Assembly (NCBI GenBank): GCA_040876885.1
Contig: JBBDOU010000005.1
Coordinates: 38,620-93,203 of the forward strand
Direction of reading: 5' to 3'
Length of the DNA stretch: 54,584 nucleotides
Origin: Minisyncoccota bacterium
Lineage (GTDB): Bacteria > Patescibacteriota > Minisyncoccia > Phycocordibacterales > JABMNX01
The position numbers were made by a program, and so were the translations under genes. The notes under the pieces are model-generated. The model saw only the letters and a program-made list of their open reading frames with translations. It ran no database searches and was not told the DNA's origin. The stretch's first letter is position 1; each line of letters begins with the position of its first letter. This document shows, one piece after another, positions 10,063 through 21,022 of this stretch.

Positions 10063-11512
<1,450 letters not shown>

Positions 11513-11647
11513 AATTGGAAATGTTATTTCGCACCCCGTGAAATAACTGAATTGGTCGGATTTATATGCCTCGTACGAGCATATAAACAAGCAATAGTGT
11601 TGAATCTTCTCTCTACACTCGCGCACCAGGATATCGCGTACTTGGAT

Positions 11648-11677
11648 GATGAACGAAACAAAAGAAAGCATACTATC
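11648..11677 (+). other. 16S trailer half of the processing stem
   Basis: GATGAACGAAACAAAAGAAAGCATACTATC pairs with 10002-10031. The 135-nt trailer between the 16S 3' end and this stem holds hairpins at about 11511-11556 and 11560-11590. Confidence 0.7.
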
Positions 11678-11689
11678 TATATATATTAG

Positions 11690-11728
11690 AAAACAAACAC
11701 GCCAGGCAACTGGCGTGTTTGTTGTTTT
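11690..11728 (+). terminator. Rho-independent terminator of the stand-alone 16S unit
   Basis: AACAAACACGCCAG-GCAA-CTGGCGTGTTTGTT, a 14-bp stem followed by GTTTT. Confidence 0.85.
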
Positions 11729-11810
11729 AAGTTTGGAAAGGAGGGTATTGACTTTTATATATAAAAATGTTATCATTAACATAGTATTAAATCAGCCTGG
11801 GAGGAAGATT

Positions 11811-12038
11811 ATGCGAGTGTGTAACCCGATTGAGCGTCTCGCTCTTCAGGATGCGAAGCGCGAGAGAAACCTGAAGGTATTGAAACTGTTGGTTTCTCTG
11901 CCTGTTATCTACGTTGGGCTTTGCTTGTTCATAAGTCTGCTTGTGCTCGTGAGCGCGGCGCTCGGAGCGCCTTCTTTAGGGGAATACGTTCCCTACATTC
12001 ACTGGCCTTTGAAGCTCCTCGTTCCATTCCTTTTGTAA
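11811..12038 (+). CDS. Small hypothetical membrane protein (75 aa)
   Basis: Trimmed from ORF 11646..12038, whose 5' part overlaps the rRNA processing stem and terminator. ATG 11811 follows GGGAGGAAG. Hydrophobic core LLVSLPVIYVGLCLFISLLVLV. Followed by a strong terminator. Confidence 0.45.
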   Translation: MRVCNPIERLALQDAKRERNLKVLKLLVSLPVIYVGLCLFISLLVLVSAALGAPSLGEYVPYIHWPLKLLVPFLL

Positions 12039-12054
12039 CACATCTCCGCCACAC

Positions 12055-12086
12055 CCGGCCCTGCAATTACGCAGGGCCGGTTTTTA
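12055..12086 (+). terminator. Rho-independent terminator
   Basis: CCGGCCCTGC-AATTAC-GCAGGGCCGG followed by TTTTTATTTT. Confidence 0.8.
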
Positions 12087-12116
12087 TTTTCACACAAAAA
12101 CATATTAAAAACATAA

Positions 12117-12146
12117 GCGCGGGGAGTTTTACTCCCCGCGCGTTTT
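12117..12146. terminator. Bidirectional terminator-like hairpin
   Basis: GCGCGGGGAG-TTTTA-CTCCCCGCGC with GTTTT downstream on the + strand. The - strand also has a T-rich tract (complement of AAAAACATAA). Confidence 0.6.
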
Positions 12147-12155
12147 CATTTCCTT

Positions 12156-12296
12156 CTAATCGCTACTTTTTTTATTTTTCTTTTTGGGTGTTTTGCAACA
12201 CACCCGTACAAATTCCTTGACATCTTGGCCTGGTGGCGGTTTTCGCACTCCAGTTGCACGACGCCTCCTTTGAGTATTTCTATTCCTTTTTCCCAT
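12156..12296 (-). CDS. Candidate small basic protein (46 aa), below the ORF-track cutoff
   Basis: Minus-strand ATG (12296) preceded by AGAAAGGA. Product MGKRNRNTQRRRRATGVRKPPPGQDVKEFVRVCCKTPKKKNKKSSD. Stop lies just before the 12117-12146 hairpin. No homology recognised. Confidence 0.25.
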   Translation of the reverse strand: MGKRNRNTQRRRRATGVRKPPPGQDVKEFVRVCCKTPKKKNKKSSD

Positions 12297-12750
12297 AAGT
12301 CCTTTCTCTCCCTTCAGGTTAGTTCCGTGGGCTCATTTGAGATAAAGCCAGTTGCTCAGGTACTCTGGATTCCGTTTGTTTGGTGACTACTCAGTCCTTC
12401 TCTCGTTCTCTCTTTTTCCGCCTCCTCTGGTTTCTTTCTGATGTTTCTGGCTTACCCCGGTGTTTTTTAGTTGTGGGTTTTCGTCCACCGCTATGTACCC
12501 GGGAAGGGCCTTTGTCTTGAGGTGCTCCATTTTGAGCGTAGCCGTTACACACGCAAACCTCCTAGTCTTTTTTTTAGAACGTAACTAATTTAGATGGTAT
12601 CAGGTATAAAATAAATACTCAAGCATTGAGGTTTTAAGCTAATTCTGGTACTATTTTGCGTACTCAGCCCCTCAAGAATCTTTGATTGATAATGTACAGC
12701 GACTTTGTTTTCTTACGAGCTGGCGAGTTAGTAAACAGGAAGTACTCTTG

Positions 12751-12813
12751 GTGGTGGTAGATCAGATGGTTAGAGCGGAGAAATAGTGTCTAAACACTAT
12801 TTCTCCTGATAAT
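12751..12813 (+). pseudogene. tRNA-Ile-derived fragment F1: diverged 5' half plus hairpin cassette plus anticodon-loop remnant
   Basis: GTGGTGG-TA-GATC-AGATGGTTA-GAGC-G resembles the 5' half of the intact gene. The 5' anticodon-stem strand CGTCA is replaced by a 28-nt hairpin (12778-12805), followed by CTGATAAT. There is no 3' half. Confidence 0.7.
12778..12805 (+). repeat. 28-nt hairpin cassette, copy 1
   Basis: GAGAAATAGTG-TCTAAA-CACTATTTCTC, a perfect 11-bp stem. Same context (TAGAGCG_CTGATAAT) as copy 2 at 12995-13022. Confidence 0.85.
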
Positions 12814-12828
12814 CTTTCTGAGCTGTGT

Positions 12829-12847
12829 GCGGGTGTAGCTCAGGTGG
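12829..12847 (+). pseudogene. tRNA-Ile fragment F2: exact 5' 19 nt of the intact gene
   Basis: GCGGGTGTAGCTCAGGTGG is identical to 12881-12899. It is preceded by CTTTCTGAGCTGTG (12814-12827), which is complementary (one G-T) to the trailer CACAGTTCAGAAAG found after F3 and F5. Confidence 0.8.
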
Positions 12848-12880
12848 GTTCGTTTGCAAAAGAATATTGCTTGGCATTGT

Positions 12881-12954
12881 GCGGGTGTAGCTCAGGTGGT
12901 TAGAGCGCGTCACTGATAATGACGAGGTCGTAGGTTCGAGTCCTACCATCCGCA
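12881..12954 (+). tRNA. tRNA-Ile (anticodon GAT), intact, CCA not encoded
   Basis: GCGGGTG-TA-GCTC-AGGTGGTTA-GAGC-G-CGTCA-CTGATAA-TGACG-AGGTC-GTAGG-TTCGAGT-CCTAC-CATCCGC-A. All four stems pair, with one G-T in the acceptor. Confidence 0.9.
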
Positions 12955-12987
12955 CAATGCTCGTCAATCAAATTCTTTTGTAAGCGA

Positions 12988-13066
12988 TAGAGCGGAGAAA
13001 CAGTGTTTAAACACTGTCTCTCCTGATAATGACGAGGTCGTAGGTTCGAGTCCTACCATCCGCACA
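12988..13066 (+). pseudogene. tRNA-Ile fragment F3: D-stem 3' strand plus hairpin cassette plus complete 3' part from the anticodon loop
   Basis: TAGAGCG, then the hairpin (12995-13022), then CTGATAATGACGAGGTCGTAGGTTCGAGTCCTACCATCCGCACA, which is identical to the intact gene from the anticodon loop onward. Lacks the acceptor 5' strand and CGTCA. Confidence 0.8.
12995..13022 (+). repeat. 28-nt hairpin cassette, copy 2
   Basis: GAGAAACAGTG-TTTAAA-CACTGTCTCTC. Relative to copy 1, a T:A pair becomes C:G (both strands changed). Confidence 0.85.
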
Positions 13067-13078
13067 CAGTTCAGAAAG

Positions 13079-13117
13079 AAATGATGAGGTCCCAAGTTCG
13101 AGTCTTGGCATCCGCAC
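13079..13117 (+). pseudogene. tRNA 3' fragment F4 with an alternative T stem
   Basis: AAATGATGAGGTC-CCAAG-TTCGAGT-CTTGG-CATCCGCAC. Same loop and acceptor strand as tRNA-Ile, but the T stem GTAGG/CCTAC is replaced by CCAAG/CTTGG with pairing preserved. Confidence 0.7.
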
Positions 13118-13134
13118 TTTGGAAAGTACCTAAT

Positions 13135-13161
13135 GTAGGTTCGAGTCCTACCATCCGCACA
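13135..13161 (+). pseudogene. tRNA-Ile fragment F5: T arm plus acceptor 3' strand
   Basis: GTAGGTTCGAGTCCTACCATCCGCACA. With the trailer CAGTTCAGAAAGAA it forms a 41-bp perfect direct repeat of 13040-13080. Confidence 0.8.
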
Positions 13162-13183
13162 CAGTTCAGAAAGAATAGACGTC

Positions 13184-13240
13184 AAAAATCCAAGGACCGT
13201 CCTTGGATTTTTACTTTTTTATCCACGGACGGTCCTTGGA
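13184..13240. repeat. REP-like palindrome family 2 doublet A (CCAAGGAC-N-GTCCTTGG); the first hairpin doubles as a terminator
   Basis: AAAAATCCAAGGA-CCG-TCCTTGGATTTTT (13184-13212), then TCCACGGAC-G-GTCCTTGGA (13222-13240). Same two-hairpin layout as 15652-15707. Confidence 0.8.
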
Positions 13241-13251
13241 CAACAAATAAC

Positions 13252-13281
13252 TTGCATTATGGGTGGTATTGGTTGTATACT
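13252..13281 (+). promoter_or_regulatory. Sigma70-like promoter candidate for the fur-ZIP-yibE/F cassette
   Basis: TTGCAT (13252-13257), 18 nt, TATACT (13276-13281). The same CTTGCATTAT...TATACT design occurs at 42971-42999. Confidence 0.45.
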
Positions 13282-13286
13282 ATCTT

Positions 13287-13303
13287 ATGCAAATAACTTG
13301 CAT
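13287..13303. promoter_or_regulatory. Candidate Fur-family operator (inverted repeat)
   Basis: ATGCAA-ATAAC-TTGCAT lies between the -10 element and the fur ATG. A half-site-containing copy AAATAACTTGCAT occurs at 13246-13258. Confidence 0.35.
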
Positions 13304-13309
13304 GAGAAT

Positions 13310-13651
13310 ATGAGTATTAATATATACAGAGATAAAATTATAAAGTTACTTGAGAAAAATCATCTTTTGAGTATTTCAGACATCCATAAAAAGATATCAG
13401 GGGTTGATTATTCCACGGTGTATAGAAACATAGAGCAACTTGTTGTTGATGAAGAAATTAAGAAAGTTGTTTTTGATAAGGGGAGGATTATGTACGAGGT
13501 TAATAACACTCAAAATAATCACGATCATTTTGTCTGTAATAGCTGTGGCGCTGTCGACGAATTAGAAAGACCGGTTTTCAACTTGAGACTTCTGAAGAAT
13601 CATGCAGTAACAGATGTCCTTGTGAGAGGGTTTTGTAGAAATTGTAATTAA
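13310..13651 (+). CDS. Fur-family metalloregulator (Fur/Zur/PerR type)
   Basis: Trimmed from ORF 13259..13651. Winged-helix N-terminus (LSISDIHKKI..VDYSTVYRNIEQL). HDHFVCNSCG and FCRNC metal-site cysteines. Confidence 0.8.
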   Translation: MSINIYRDKIIKLLEKNHLLSISDIHKKISGVDYSTVYRNIEQLVVDEEIKKVVFDKGRIMYEVNNTQNNHDHFVCNSCGAVDELERPVFNLRLLKNHAVTDVLVRGFCRNCN

Positions 13652-18455: not shown

Positions 18456-20273
18456 ATGAATCTTGAGAAAATAACATACCTCGCTGCCACAGACTCTCGT
18501 GGTAAAGAAAAAGCATTTGGTATAAAAGCCATAGACAGAGCGAAGCATATGTATATCATCGGTAAAACTGGTATGGGGAAGTCAGTGCTTCTTGAGAATA
18601 TGGCGATTCAAGATATTCAAAATGGAGAAGGGCTTGCGTTCATTGATCCCCACGGCTCTACTGCAGAAAAGCTTCTTGACTATGTGCCAGAGCACCGCAT
18701 GGAAGATGTTGTGTACTTTGCTCCTTTTGATATGGACAACCCTGTTGCGTTTAATGTAATGGAAGATGTTGGGTACGACAAACGCCACCTTGTTGTGTCC
18801 GGCTTGATGAGCGCCTTTAAAAAAATATGGGTTGATGCGTGGAGTGCCCGTATGGAATATATCTTAACCAACACGTTGCTGGCGCTCCTTGAGTACCCTG
18901 ACGCGACATTGCTTGATATAAACCAGATGTTTATTAACAAAGCGTTTCGAAAAAAAGTTGTTGAGTATGTAACTGACCCTATTGTAAAATCGTTTTGGAA
19001 TGAGGAGTTTGCGGGATATTCAGACAGGTATGCACAAGAGGCAACCCCAGCTATTCAAAACAAGGTGGGGCAATTTACCTCGAACCCACTTATTCGAAAC
19101 ATTGTTGGACAGGCGCAATCAACATTTGATATGCGTGACATTATGGATAAGAAGAAAATCTTTATTGCAAACTTATCGAAGGGTCAAATGGGAGAAACAA
19201 ACGCAGACTTAATCGGAAGTATGCTTACCACAAAGATCTATCTTTCGGCGATGAGTCGTGCTGATGAGCAAGCGGTGGTCCAAGCGAAACTTCCTCCATT
19301 TTATTTCTATGTAGACGAATTCCAATCTATCGCAAATGACTCATTTGCCGATATTCTTTCTGAAGCTCGAAAATATAAACTCGCCCTTGTCATTGCGCAT
19401 CAATTTATCGCACAAATGGAGGACAATGTTCGTGATGCGGTGTTTGGAAACGCGGGAACCATTATTGCATTTAGGGTCGGTCCTTTTGATGCAGAGGTTC
19501 TTGAGACAGTGTTTCAGCCAAAGTTCCTTGCAGAAGACATTGTTAATCTTGGGAAGTACCAGACATATATGACGCTGATGATAGACGGTGCGGGCTCGAC
19601 CCCGTTCTCTGCGTCAACACTGCCTCCTATAGAAGAGCCAACTATCAGTTTCAAGGAGCAGATACTTCGTATATCAAAGGAGACGTATGGTCGCCCTCGA
19701 GAACAGATAGAGGAGGCTTTAAGGAAACGAAATGAAGCGCTTTCTCCTCAGCAGGCACAGCCTAAAAAACAAGAATATGCACAAGGAAACAAGGGCGGTA
19801 GTAGTGGCTTGACCAAGAGTTTTTCTCAAAGCCAAACTAAAGACTGTACACAGCCCTTGGGGAGCAAGAAAGATACAGGAACAGTAGCCCCCGCTGAAAA
19901 AAAACACGGAAACCCATCGAAAGATGTTCAGAATCAGAACAATAATTCAAGTAACGTTGTTCGCAAAGAAAAGCAAACAGTCTCGCTTAATACGTTGAAG
20001 TTTAAACAGCAGGCAACCAGTAAAGGGCCATCTGCTGCTCAATTATCTGCACTTCGGGACGCATTGAAGTCTGTGCAAAAAAATACGACACCTCCAGCGT
20101 CACAGAAAAAAAATAAGTCAGATGATATTGGAATAAAAAAAGAAAAACATTCAGAAAATGTTCCTCAAAGAGAAGGAACATCACAAGGGGCTTCAGGAGA
20201 AGAGAAAAAACCTCACCAAGAAAAAGAGGTTCCTCGTGAGGTGCTTGAAAATATCCTCAAAAAAGATGAGTAA
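18456..20273 (+). CDS. P-loop NTPase of the TraG/TraD/VirD4 (type IV coupling protein-like) group, with a ~170-aa low-complexity K/Q/S-rich tail
   Basis: Trimmed from ORF 18402..20273. Walker A GKTGMGKS. Walker B-like FYFYVDEFQS. ARKYKLALVIAHQFIAQM. Tail ...QQAQPKKQEYAQGNKGGSSG...KKNKSDDIGIKKEKH. Confidence 0.55.
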   Translation: MNLEKITYLAATDSRGKEKAFGIKAIDRAKHMYIIGKTGMGKSVLLENMAIQDIQNGEGLAFIDPHGSTAEKLLDYVPEHRMEDVVYFAPFDMDNPVAFNVMEDVGYDKRHLVVSGLMSAFKKIWVDAWSARMEYILTNTLLALLEYPDATLLDINQMFINKAFRKKVVEYVTDPIVKSFWNEEFAGYSDRYAQEATPAIQNKVGQFTSNPLIRNIVGQAQSTFDMRDIMDKKKIFIANLSKGQMGETNADLIGSMLTTKIYLSAMSRADEQAVVQAKLPPFYFYVDEFQSIANDSFADILSEARKYKLALVIAHQFIAQMEDNVRDAVFGNAGTIIAFRVGPFDAEVLETVFQPKFLAEDIVNLGKYQTYMTLMIDGAGSTPFSASTLPPIEEPTISFKEQILRISKETYGRPREQIEEALRKRNEALSPQQAQPKKQEYAQGNKGGSSGLTKSFSQSQTKDCTQPLGSKKDTGTVAPAEKKHGNPSKDVQNQNNNSSNVVRKEKQTVSLNTLKFKQQATSKGPSAAQLSALRDALKSVQKNTTPPASQKKNKSDDIGIKKEKHSENVPQREGTSQGASGEEKKPHQEKEVPREVLENILKKDE

Positions 20274-20315
20274 CTTAACCACTTTGGCGGTCCGACCGCC
20301 AAAGTGGTTAAGTTA
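20271..20315. repeat. REP-like palindrome family 1, copy 2 (45-nt perfect hairpin)
   Basis: TAACTTAACCACTTTGGCGG-TCCGA-CCGCCAAAGTGGTTAAGTTA, a 20-bp perfect stem. The left arm starts with the TAA stop of the ATPase gene. It ends 15 bp before the RAYT start. Confidence 0.9.
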
Positions 20316-20329
20316 TAAGTTATCTATAT

Positions 20330-21022
20330 ATGAGAAAAGTCCCTTTTGTTAACAATGAGTACTATCATATTTTTAACCGCGGTGTAGATAAGCGGACGGT
20401 TTTTGAAGATAAGTTTGATATAGAACGGTTTTTTGAAAGTATGAAAATTTTCAATCGTGTTAAACCAGTTGGTAGTATCCTTGAATATTCAGTCAAGCGC
20501 AGAAAAGATGGTAATTTTGGCGGTCGGACCGCCAAAATTACCACAAAAACCGAGGAGCGGTTAGTCGACTTTGTTAGTTACTGCCTAAATCCAAACCATT
20601 TTCACTTTATTCTTAGGCAAAGAAGCGATGGTGGCATTAGTGAGTTTATGAAACGATTAGGTGGTGGCTATACATGGTATTTTAATAATAAACATAGCAG
20701 AAATGGTGCGTTGTTTCAGGGAAAATTTAAATCTGTCCATATCAACTCAAATGAGTACTTACTCCACTTAAGTGCATATGTGAACCTTAATAATCGTGTA
20801 CATAACTTTGGCGGTCCGACCGCCAAAATAATTAGATCTAGCTGGGATGAGTATATAGGAGTAGATAATAAAGAGAGTAAAAAAGTCTACTGCGATAAGG
20901 ATATTATTTTAGGACAATTTAAAAATAAAAAAGAATATAAAAAATTTGCAGAAAATTCCTTAAGAGACATATTAAAAAACAAAGAAAAAGCCGAAGAGCT
21001 TGAGATTTTATTACTTGAATAA
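20330..21022 (+). CDS. REP-associated tyrosine transposase (RAYT) / IS200-like Y1 HUH transposase
   Basis: YYHIFNRG first strand. HUH motif NHFHFIL. GALFQGKFKSVHINSNEYLLHLSAYVNLNN with the catalytic-Tyr helix. ..SSWDEY. Flanked and penetrated by family-1 palindromes. Confidence 0.75.
   Translation: MRKVPFVNNEYYHIFNRGVDKRTVFEDKFDIERFFESMKIFNRVKPVGSILEYSVKRRKDGNFGGRTAKITTKTEERLVDFVSYCLNPNHFHFILRQRSDGGISEFMKRLGGGYTWYFNNKHSRNGALFQGKFKSVHINSNEYLLHLSAYVNLNNRVHNFGGPTAKIIRSSWDEYIGVDNKESKKVYCDKDIILGQFKNKKEYKKFAENSLRDILKNKEKAEELEILLLE
20510..20542. repeat. REP-like palindrome family 1, copy 3 (inside the RAYT CDS, centre inverted)
   Basis: GGTAATTTTGGCGG-TCGGA-CCGCCAAAATTACC, a 14-bp perfect stem. 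Translated in frame as GNFGGRTAKIT. Confidence 0.9.
20807..20827. repeat. REP-like palindrome family 1, copy 4 (inside the RAYT CDS)
   Basis: TTTGGCGG-TCCGA-CCGCCAAA, translated in frame as NFGGPTAKI. Confidence 0.9.

Follow-up and report, generated by a model that had tools for sequence, protein, structure and literature searches.

Organization of the tRNA-Ile locus

The window, i.e., the whole stretch of 54,584 nucleotides analyzed here, belongs to a genome of 0.62 Mb (623,460 bases; 96.6% complete), and ARAGORN accepts a single tRNA gene in it, tRNA-Ile(GAU). This live gene is surrounded by pieces of further tRNA-Ile copies, which are assigned to layers 1, 2, and 3 from the inside outward (Table 1). 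The pieces of layer 1 abut to within one base when positions 12848-12987 are left out; this segment, which comprises the live tRNA together with its leader and trailer, is thus an insert in the D-loop of layer 1. Layer 1 in turn sits in the anticodon loop of layer 2, which gives the locus a Russian-doll order. The fragments are not loose debris. Judged by sequence, they are the halves of older tRNA-Ile genes that were split by inserted tRNA-Ile units.

The live unit contains a 16-nt (12850-12865 / 12972-12987) and a 14-nt (12874-12887 / 12947-12960) inverted repeat, and its leader and trailer form a predicted duplex of -27.2 kcal/mol with 24 pairs, three of which are G.U. The corresponding inverted repeat of layer 1 (12813-12835 / 13057-13079) spans 23 nt at 91% identity. 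The decayed 5' piece of layer 2 shares a 21-nt direct repeat with the live gene (12757-12777 vs 12887-12907, 90% identity), and the 3' piece of the same layer shares 97% identity with the live tRNA in another genome of the genus (locus L009). When positions 12660-13215 (556 nt) are folded as RNA, nested helices that match the layers are obtained, with a minimum free energy of -215 kcal/mol and a z-score of -8.4.

A promoter scan of 12450-13350 gave no match; an extended -10-like motif upstream of the tRNA-Ile locus was seen in many genomes by eye only. In all relatives examined, the 16S gene (11516-12640 in the window) precedes tRNA-Ile by 0.7-1.4 kb, with 23S absent downstream; one same-genus genome has its tRNA-Ile locus inverted with respect to 16S. 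Additionally, a tRNA-like gene that ARAGORN misses is located at 587-715, between the end of 23S and the 5S gene (Rfam, 39.7 bits). Its acceptor, D, and T arms and its encoded CCA are intact, its leader and trailer pair, and 69 nt replace its anticodon arm.

Table 1. Features of the nested tRNA-Ile locus and of related elements; positions are those of the window unless a contig (C) is named
Feature	Position	Strand	Evidence or remark
Decayed 5' piece of layer 2, the second-oldest tRNA-Ile copy (acceptor 5' strand and D arm; F1 of the preliminary description)	12751-12777	+	21-nt direct repeat
Hairpin copy 1	12778-12805	+	Replaces anticodon-stem 5' strand of layer 2; covariance-model match, 67.4 bits
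Anticodon-loop remnant and split point of layer 2	12806-12813	+	End of 43-nt repeat
Leader of layer 1	12813-12828	+	Pairs with trailer 13067-13079; paired in RNA fold
5' piece of layer 1, positions 1-19 to the D-loop (F2)	12829-12847	+	19/19 identical to live tRNA start
Leader of live tRNA unit	12848-12880	+	Pairs with 12956-12987
Live tRNA-Ile(GAU) gene	12881-12955	+	ARAGORN; Rfam tRNA, 72.7 bits
Trailer of live tRNA unit	12956-12987	+	Inverted repeats and duplex
D-arm 3' strand of layer 1	12988-12994	+	Resumes piece 12829-12847 to within one base
Hairpin copy 2	12995-13022	+	Replaces anticodon-stem 5' strand of layer 1 (F3); covariance-model match, 76.9 bits
3' piece of layer 1, anticodon loop to 3' end	13023-13066	+	44/44 identical to live gene, 12913-12956
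Trailer of layer 1	13067-13079	+	Inverted repeat
3' piece of layer 2, from 3' side of anticodon loop, with a different T arm	13080-13117	+	Third copy of direct-repeat family, 70%
3' piece of the outermost copy, layer 3 (T arm and acceptor 3' strand)	13135-13161	+	26/26 identical to live tRNA 3' end
Second copy of layer-1 trailer, after the layer-3 piece	13162-13177	+	Inverted repeat
Intrinsic terminator ending the whole nested locus	13184-13212	+	Sole terminator-like site found in 12450-13350
Y1 transposase-like ORF, 230 aa	20330-21022		PF01797, 31.1 bits (cut-off 23)
Head units at other tRNA loci	C11:17334-17510; C13:49638-49800; C15:12525-12681		Also locus L101

The hairpin in the window

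Two copies of a 28-nt hairpin lie inside the dead layers, away from the insert junctions. Each of them is flanked by the 7-nt 3' strand of the D arm of tRNA-Ile and by the anticodon loop, and stands where the live gene has the 5-nt 5' strand of its anticodon stem. The hairpin pattern has exactly two plus-strand matches in the window, where none is expected (100 shuffles); it matches the minus strand at the same two places because it is a palindrome, and both are the sole exact-pattern copies in the genome. The pattern search and the comparison with the live gene thus confirm the preliminary description in its statements that there are two such copies and that each replaces the 5' strand of the anticodon stem in a tRNA fragment.

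At their feet, the 5' arm of the palindrome carries an A-tract and the 3' arm a T-tract. In copy 1 the arms pair perfectly over 13 bp (12777-12789 / 12794-12806), and in copy 2 with one mismatch. Both copies are part of a 43-nt repeat (12771-12813 vs 12988-13030, 91% identity) with four differences. Two of these form a compensatory T:A to C:G pair, a third affects a loop base, and the fourth, a T to C substitution in the 3' arm, creates an A.C mismatch in copy 2. The paired change on which the earlier claim of selection was built is therefore real, although the copies also differ at the loop base and at the mismatch.

The locus is present as identical unitigs in four metagenome runs of one study, where one unitig covers 12405-12915 and another 12927-13066; both hairpins and their flanks are thus read through. 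Since that study may be the source of the sample, the unitigs check the assembly and add no independent support. Alternative joints at the locus found no support among the contigs of the four DNA runs; one weak joint, present in one run with a side of 21 letters at 90% likeness, may stem from another organism.

Fragments at other tRNA loci

Fragments of their own tRNA accompany 13 of the 35 tRNA loci of the genome: 5' pieces upstream at seven, 3' pieces downstream at ten, and both at four. The downstream units, which measure roughly 140 nt and are often tandem-doubled, begin with a tRNA 3' part and a terminator palindrome, after which the T-loop region recurs in inverted orientation; one of two conserved cores and then the old 3' piece complete them. 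They are found on contigs C6, C8, C9, C10, C13, C14, and C15 (loci L071-L075). In one core type, a short hairpin beside the T-loop covaries among four copies. Rfam yielded no family for these small tRNA-linked elements or for either core. Upstream "head" units are composed of a dead 5' piece reaching to the D-loop, a hairpin, a second conserved hairpin, a new leader, and the live gene.

The genome as a whole is rich in palindromes, with 150 perfect hairpins (stem of at least 10, loop of 3-8) compared with 9 in the shuffled genome; most combine an A-tract in the 5' arm with a T-tract in the 3' arm, the A-tract being confined to the 5' arm in 84 of them, and the reverse holds in 14. Several palindrome families are repeated in 3-8 copies each. 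A reverse transcriptase (367-aa frame; C9:16959-17567) is encoded in this genome and in none of four relatives; about 2 kb separate its gene from a tRNA-His with a 3' fragment. The extra integrases of one relative (G003) are located at tRNA-Ser, with none of the small-element motifs.

Distribution of the hairpin module

The same locus type was recovered in several genomes when the locus was compared by BLAST with 40 relatives. A covariance model built from 11 copies of the hairpin module, i.e., the D-arm remnant, the hairpin, and the anticodon loop, detected the module with its hairpin in 13 of the 151 genomes sampled from the order and in none of the 149 sampled elsewhere in the phylum. Together with copies found by further routes, the final set comprises 21 modules in 17 genomes, which sets aside the case, named in the preliminary description as its refutation, that only the two copies exist anywhere. 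All 21 modules share the strand of a live tRNA-Ile and lie no more than 250 nt away, 14 of them downstream and the other 7 upstream. A strict pattern is matched in 8 of 401 genomes of the order, three of which (G109, G112, and G096) are chance matches in coding DNA. The hairpin is present across at least 12 families of the order, in genomes of 0.5-1 Mb; leader sequences are alike across families, and in seven genomes the outer 5' piece and the D-loop insert are also readable.

The position of the hairpin within the tRNA is fixed, while the insertion junctions vary among the D-loop, the anticodon loop, and the border of the variable loop and T stem. In several genomes the anticodon loop of hairpin-bearing copies decays, and many copies are devoid of the 5' half. 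The same family includes genomes whose tRNA-Ile gene is plain, with no shell, no hairpin, and only a weak leader-trailer duplex, which indicates that the module is dispensable. Near-identical stems occur in different families, yet same-genus genomes differ, a distribution that lateral movement fits better than plain descent.

Other arrangements were encountered among these loci. At about 1380-1560 of locus L049 (G083), a single shell contains a tandem of two hairpin types separated by a hybrid copy, and these take the place of the anticodon loop and of the stem's 3' strand. At loci L050 (G155) and L052 (G044), the dead 5' piece ends in a snap-back, in which the 3' strand of the anticodon stem and the variable loop are followed directly by their own inverted copy. 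Furthermore, G+C-rich palindromes of 17-20 nt that belong to one palindrome family occur in three genomes (L013 in G008, L034 in G009, and L005 in G039), inside or directly behind dead pieces of different tRNAs.

The hairpin family also extends beyond tRNA-Ile. Its pattern is found in 23 of 401 genomes of the order, with 1-4 copies per genome, and the reversed control gave no matches. At six of the 13 loci read, the hairpin stands directly behind a tRNA-Lys, -Arg, or -Gly gene and is followed by a tail of 5-6 T, which suggests that it is the usual tRNA terminator hairpin of these bacteria. Three further loci carry it inside a small conserved element behind tRNA genes, one in another nested tRNA-Ile shell, one after a dead tRNA-Gln 5' piece, and two elsewhere; in a same-genus genome it is located behind a dead tRNA-Leu 5' piece. 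This recurrence in several tRNA-linked settings marks the 28-nt unit as a reused module, in agreement with its earlier characterization as a discrete cassette.

Pairing and covariation of the stem

In a MAFFT alignment of the first 11 copies, 95.2% of 125 cells pair and 7 of the 12 pairs change on both sides. In the model alignment of 21 copies, 94.1% of 237 cells pair (42-54% with slid partners), 11 of the 12 pairs change on both sides (53 cells), and the covariation score is 0.574, compared with 0.163 in shuffles, of which 0 of 500 reach 0.574; since this alignment is fitted to the model structure and leans to pairing, and since the genomes are kin, the figures overstate a signal that is still large. 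The three A-U pairs at the base of the stem scarcely vary: two are retained as A-U in 17 of the 21 copies and the third in 19.

The 22 rows of the model alignment contain 8 G.U and 7 A.C mismatches, i.e., no strand bias; a sense-strand bias suggested by a hand count (5 G.U vs 2 A.C) was dropped on this account. Because the mismatches are unbiased and a palindrome in DNA gives equal covariation, RNA and folded DNA are indistinguishable here, and the covariation data separate neither these two nor selection from palindrome self-correction. The proposal that the hairpin is selected rather than junk thus stands insofar as pairing is kept in 21 copies from 17 genomes, whereas self-correction gives the same pattern. 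Nothing indicates that the hairpin-bearing copy is a functional tRNA-like RNA, given the decaying anticodon loop and the many copies without a 5' half.

Possible origins of the hairpin

A DNA-level explanation, which we regard as rather unlikely, is that the hairpin is a small mobile REP-like palindrome or the single-strand recombination site, in folded form, of cassettes that target tRNA genes and carry no cargo, DNA that would be handled by a Y1 (HUH) transposase or a tyrosine recombinase; its restriction to dead tRNA copies would then mean that live ones do not tolerate it. In its fuller form, to which we assign a still somewhat lower probability, such cassettes repeatedly invade the tRNA genes of the order, each bringing a replacement tRNA, a head or tail, and a border hairpin, the last of which would be the folded single-stranded site for a host Y1 or Xer-type enzyme. 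Y1 transposase-like genes are indeed present in four of the five genomes searched, one of them in this window, and each is associated with a palindrome family of its own, whose copies lie around the gene and within it, including in frame with the coding sequence; the ORF in the window carries a palindrome of about 30 nt twice in frame (20510-20543 and 20806-20835) and once just upstream (20271-20315), with at least seven copies of the family in the genome. Short palindromes thus do spread in these genomes. Mobility is also consistent with the appearance of the tRNA hairpin family in at least four unrelated settings, with the near-identical stems in different families, with the unbiased mismatches, and with hairpins that start at most 5 nt from the end of the dead 5' piece at three of the six loci with 5' pieces in the same genome (tRNA-Ile(GAU) excluded). 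However, the palindromes of the Y1 genes (G000, G003, G004, and G009) have 3-nt loops and other stems, and none belongs to the tRNA hairpin family, which has only 2-4 copies per genome. Moreover, no common flank or cut motif was seen at different hairpin sites, the hairpin keeps to a single tRNA position as the junctions shift, and a single Xer-like enzyme is the only tyrosine recombinase in four of the five genomes. REP/REPIN sequences with their RAYT (Y1) genes and Rickettsia-type in-gene palindromes are alike in that short palindromes are kept as structures, and a Y1 gene is at hand in the window; unlike them, the tRNA hairpin falls outside the examined Y1 palindrome families, accompanies none of the Y1 genes examined, is tied to tRNA loci, and has a very low copy number instead of many dispersed copies. 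TnpB, which would be expected of an IS200/IS605 element, is above the PF07282 cut-off in none of the five genomes. Integron attC sites and the CTX phage attP offer a possible parallel, as they keep structure over sequence, the stem being conserved at its foot and variable at its tip; unlike attC, the hairpin loci display no cassette array. The earlier idea that the hairpin is the end or recombination site of a mobile element targeting the anticodon arm is accordingly not upheld, since the hairpin is off the insertion junctions and no such element was found.

It is less likely again that a functionless palindrome entered one dead copy once and has since been maintained and spread by template switching (quasi-palindrome correction) and gene conversion. 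The window copies share flanks able to guide conversion, i.e., the 43-nt repeat, and the dead pieces, identical to the live gene in 44/44, 19/19, and 26/26 positions, speak for ongoing homogenization; moreover, hairpin copies within one genome are more alike than those of same-genus genomes, the mismatches have no strand bias, and the genome tolerates very many perfect palindromes. What a functionless origin does not readily explain is the persistence of the hairpin over at least 12 families while the neighboring anticodon loop decays in several copies, and the A-tract and T-tract at the stem foot, which are kept as sequence and not only as pairs. Partial tRNAs beside integrated elements are well known, as described in two reports (PMC9897764; bioRxiv 10.1101/2020.12.28.424599). 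The fragments could be ordinary att remnants of integrase elements that repeatedly integrated in tRNA-Ile, with the hairpin as an attP arm near an anticodon-loop crossover. We consider this improbable. Like the partial tRNAs of integrative elements, the locus has direct repeats of the tRNA 3' part behind an intact gene and several layers per gene: three 3' pieces follow the live gene in direct order, each beginning at a classic crossover site (anticodon loop or T arm), the foremost piece matches the live gene throughout, and other tRNA genes of the genome have tandem units that start with a tRNA 3' part. Unlike such remnants, which are one-sided, the locus has 5' pieces upstream in mirror order, with breakpoints complementary to those of the 3' pieces; the hairpin, at its fixed place, is found in 5' pieces as well (7/21); and only 32-110 nt, with no integrase, element body, or cargo, lie between the repeats, the single tyrosine recombinase of the genome being on another contig. 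In addition, the inserts are whole tRNA units whose leader and trailer pair, a pairing that two separate integrations would not give. A very remote alternative, which is close to refuted, takes the hairpin and the inserted units as intron-like parts of a tRNA or tRNA-like RNA that are spliced or used as such. The whole locus does fold as a nested rod, and the insert positions in the D-loop, the anticodon loop, and at the variable-loop border may recall non-canonical archaeal intron sites as well as split and permuted tRNAs, which likewise have long complementary flanks. However, these are bacteria in which the splicing endonuclease (PF01974) was found in none of five genomes, while four archaeal controls were positive, and the insert is itself a working tRNA. 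No Rfam intron family matches the locus; in 11400-13400, at E-values up to 10, the only credible Rfam matches are tRNA and rRNA. With the hairpin removed, neither side offers a 5' strand for the anticodon stem, so that the cloverleaf is not restored, and many copies are without the whole 5' half.

A proposed border hairpin on the sense transcript

The reading that we tentatively prefer, with a confidence approaching but not reaching an even chance, is that of a reused, structure-constrained border hairpin in displaced dead tRNA copies, for which a role on the sense transcript is the likeliest. The fixed place of the hairpin, the nesting, its spread, the covariation, and its reuse elsewhere are established; that it functions in folded, single-stranded form, setting the border of a dead tRNA piece, is our inference. 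On this reading, the dead shells arose when complete tRNA-Ile units, each bearing a long leader-trailer helix, were inserted into the resident gene, so that its 5' part came to lie upstream and its 3' part downstream; more than one such event gave the Russian-doll order. The hairpin is older than its two window copies and at least as old as the order; its arms change together, and gene conversion or local copying keeps the copies within a genome alike. On the sense transcript, it might serve as a stop, a pause, or a 3'-end protection, and could keep the dead 3' half apart from the live tRNA.

A sense-transcript role is suggested by the terminator hairpins of the same family at other tRNAs, by the sense-strand pairing of the units, and by the position of two-thirds of the copies behind the live unit. 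With respect to the pairing, the sense strand of the leader-trailer helix is the more stable one at 12 of 13 loci with at least 20 pairs, which fits pairing of the units around the hairpin at the RNA level. Like intrinsic (bidirectional) terminators, the hairpin combines an A-tract, a short G+C-containing stem (13 bp; 94% pairing in 21 copies), and a T-tract, and the same family stands behind tRNA-Lys, -Arg, and -Gly. Unlike them, the hairpin of the tRNA-Ile shells has a T-tract that is only 3-5 long and lies within the stem, with no T-rich tail after it. A scan for such a tail (at least 5 T in 8) after the stem flagged none of seven modules (G000, G003, G009, G023, and G012), whereas the same scan does flag 13184-13212, a strong terminator that the window has besides the hairpins. 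Furthermore, the third of the copies located upstream of the live gene (7/21) would block its transcription if they were efficient stops. The stems shared between families, which hint at transfer, the unbiased mismatches, and the genomes that do without the module also count against this reading.

Significance

The usual interpretation of dead tRNA pieces beside tRNA genes is that large integrating elements left them behind as scars. In the present 0.6-Mb genome, such pieces occur at 13 of the 35 tRNA loci with no element between them, and the tRNA-Ile pieces are nested, with one complete unit per layer and a hairpin at a fixed place that is kept arm-to-arm across the order. Full-text literature searches returned no account of nested tRNA genes, or of a hairpin of this kind, for these bacteria.

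If the transcript-level border is true, it would show how a live tRNA stays foldable among near-identical dead copies. A DNA-level site, if that is what the hairpin represents, would point to a turnover of tRNA genes of an undescribed kind, and cargo-free cassettes would constitute a new class of tRNA-targeting selfish element that has no recombinase of its own and builds Russian-doll tRNA genes. Under either reading, tRNA predictions and tRNA counts in these lineages need care.
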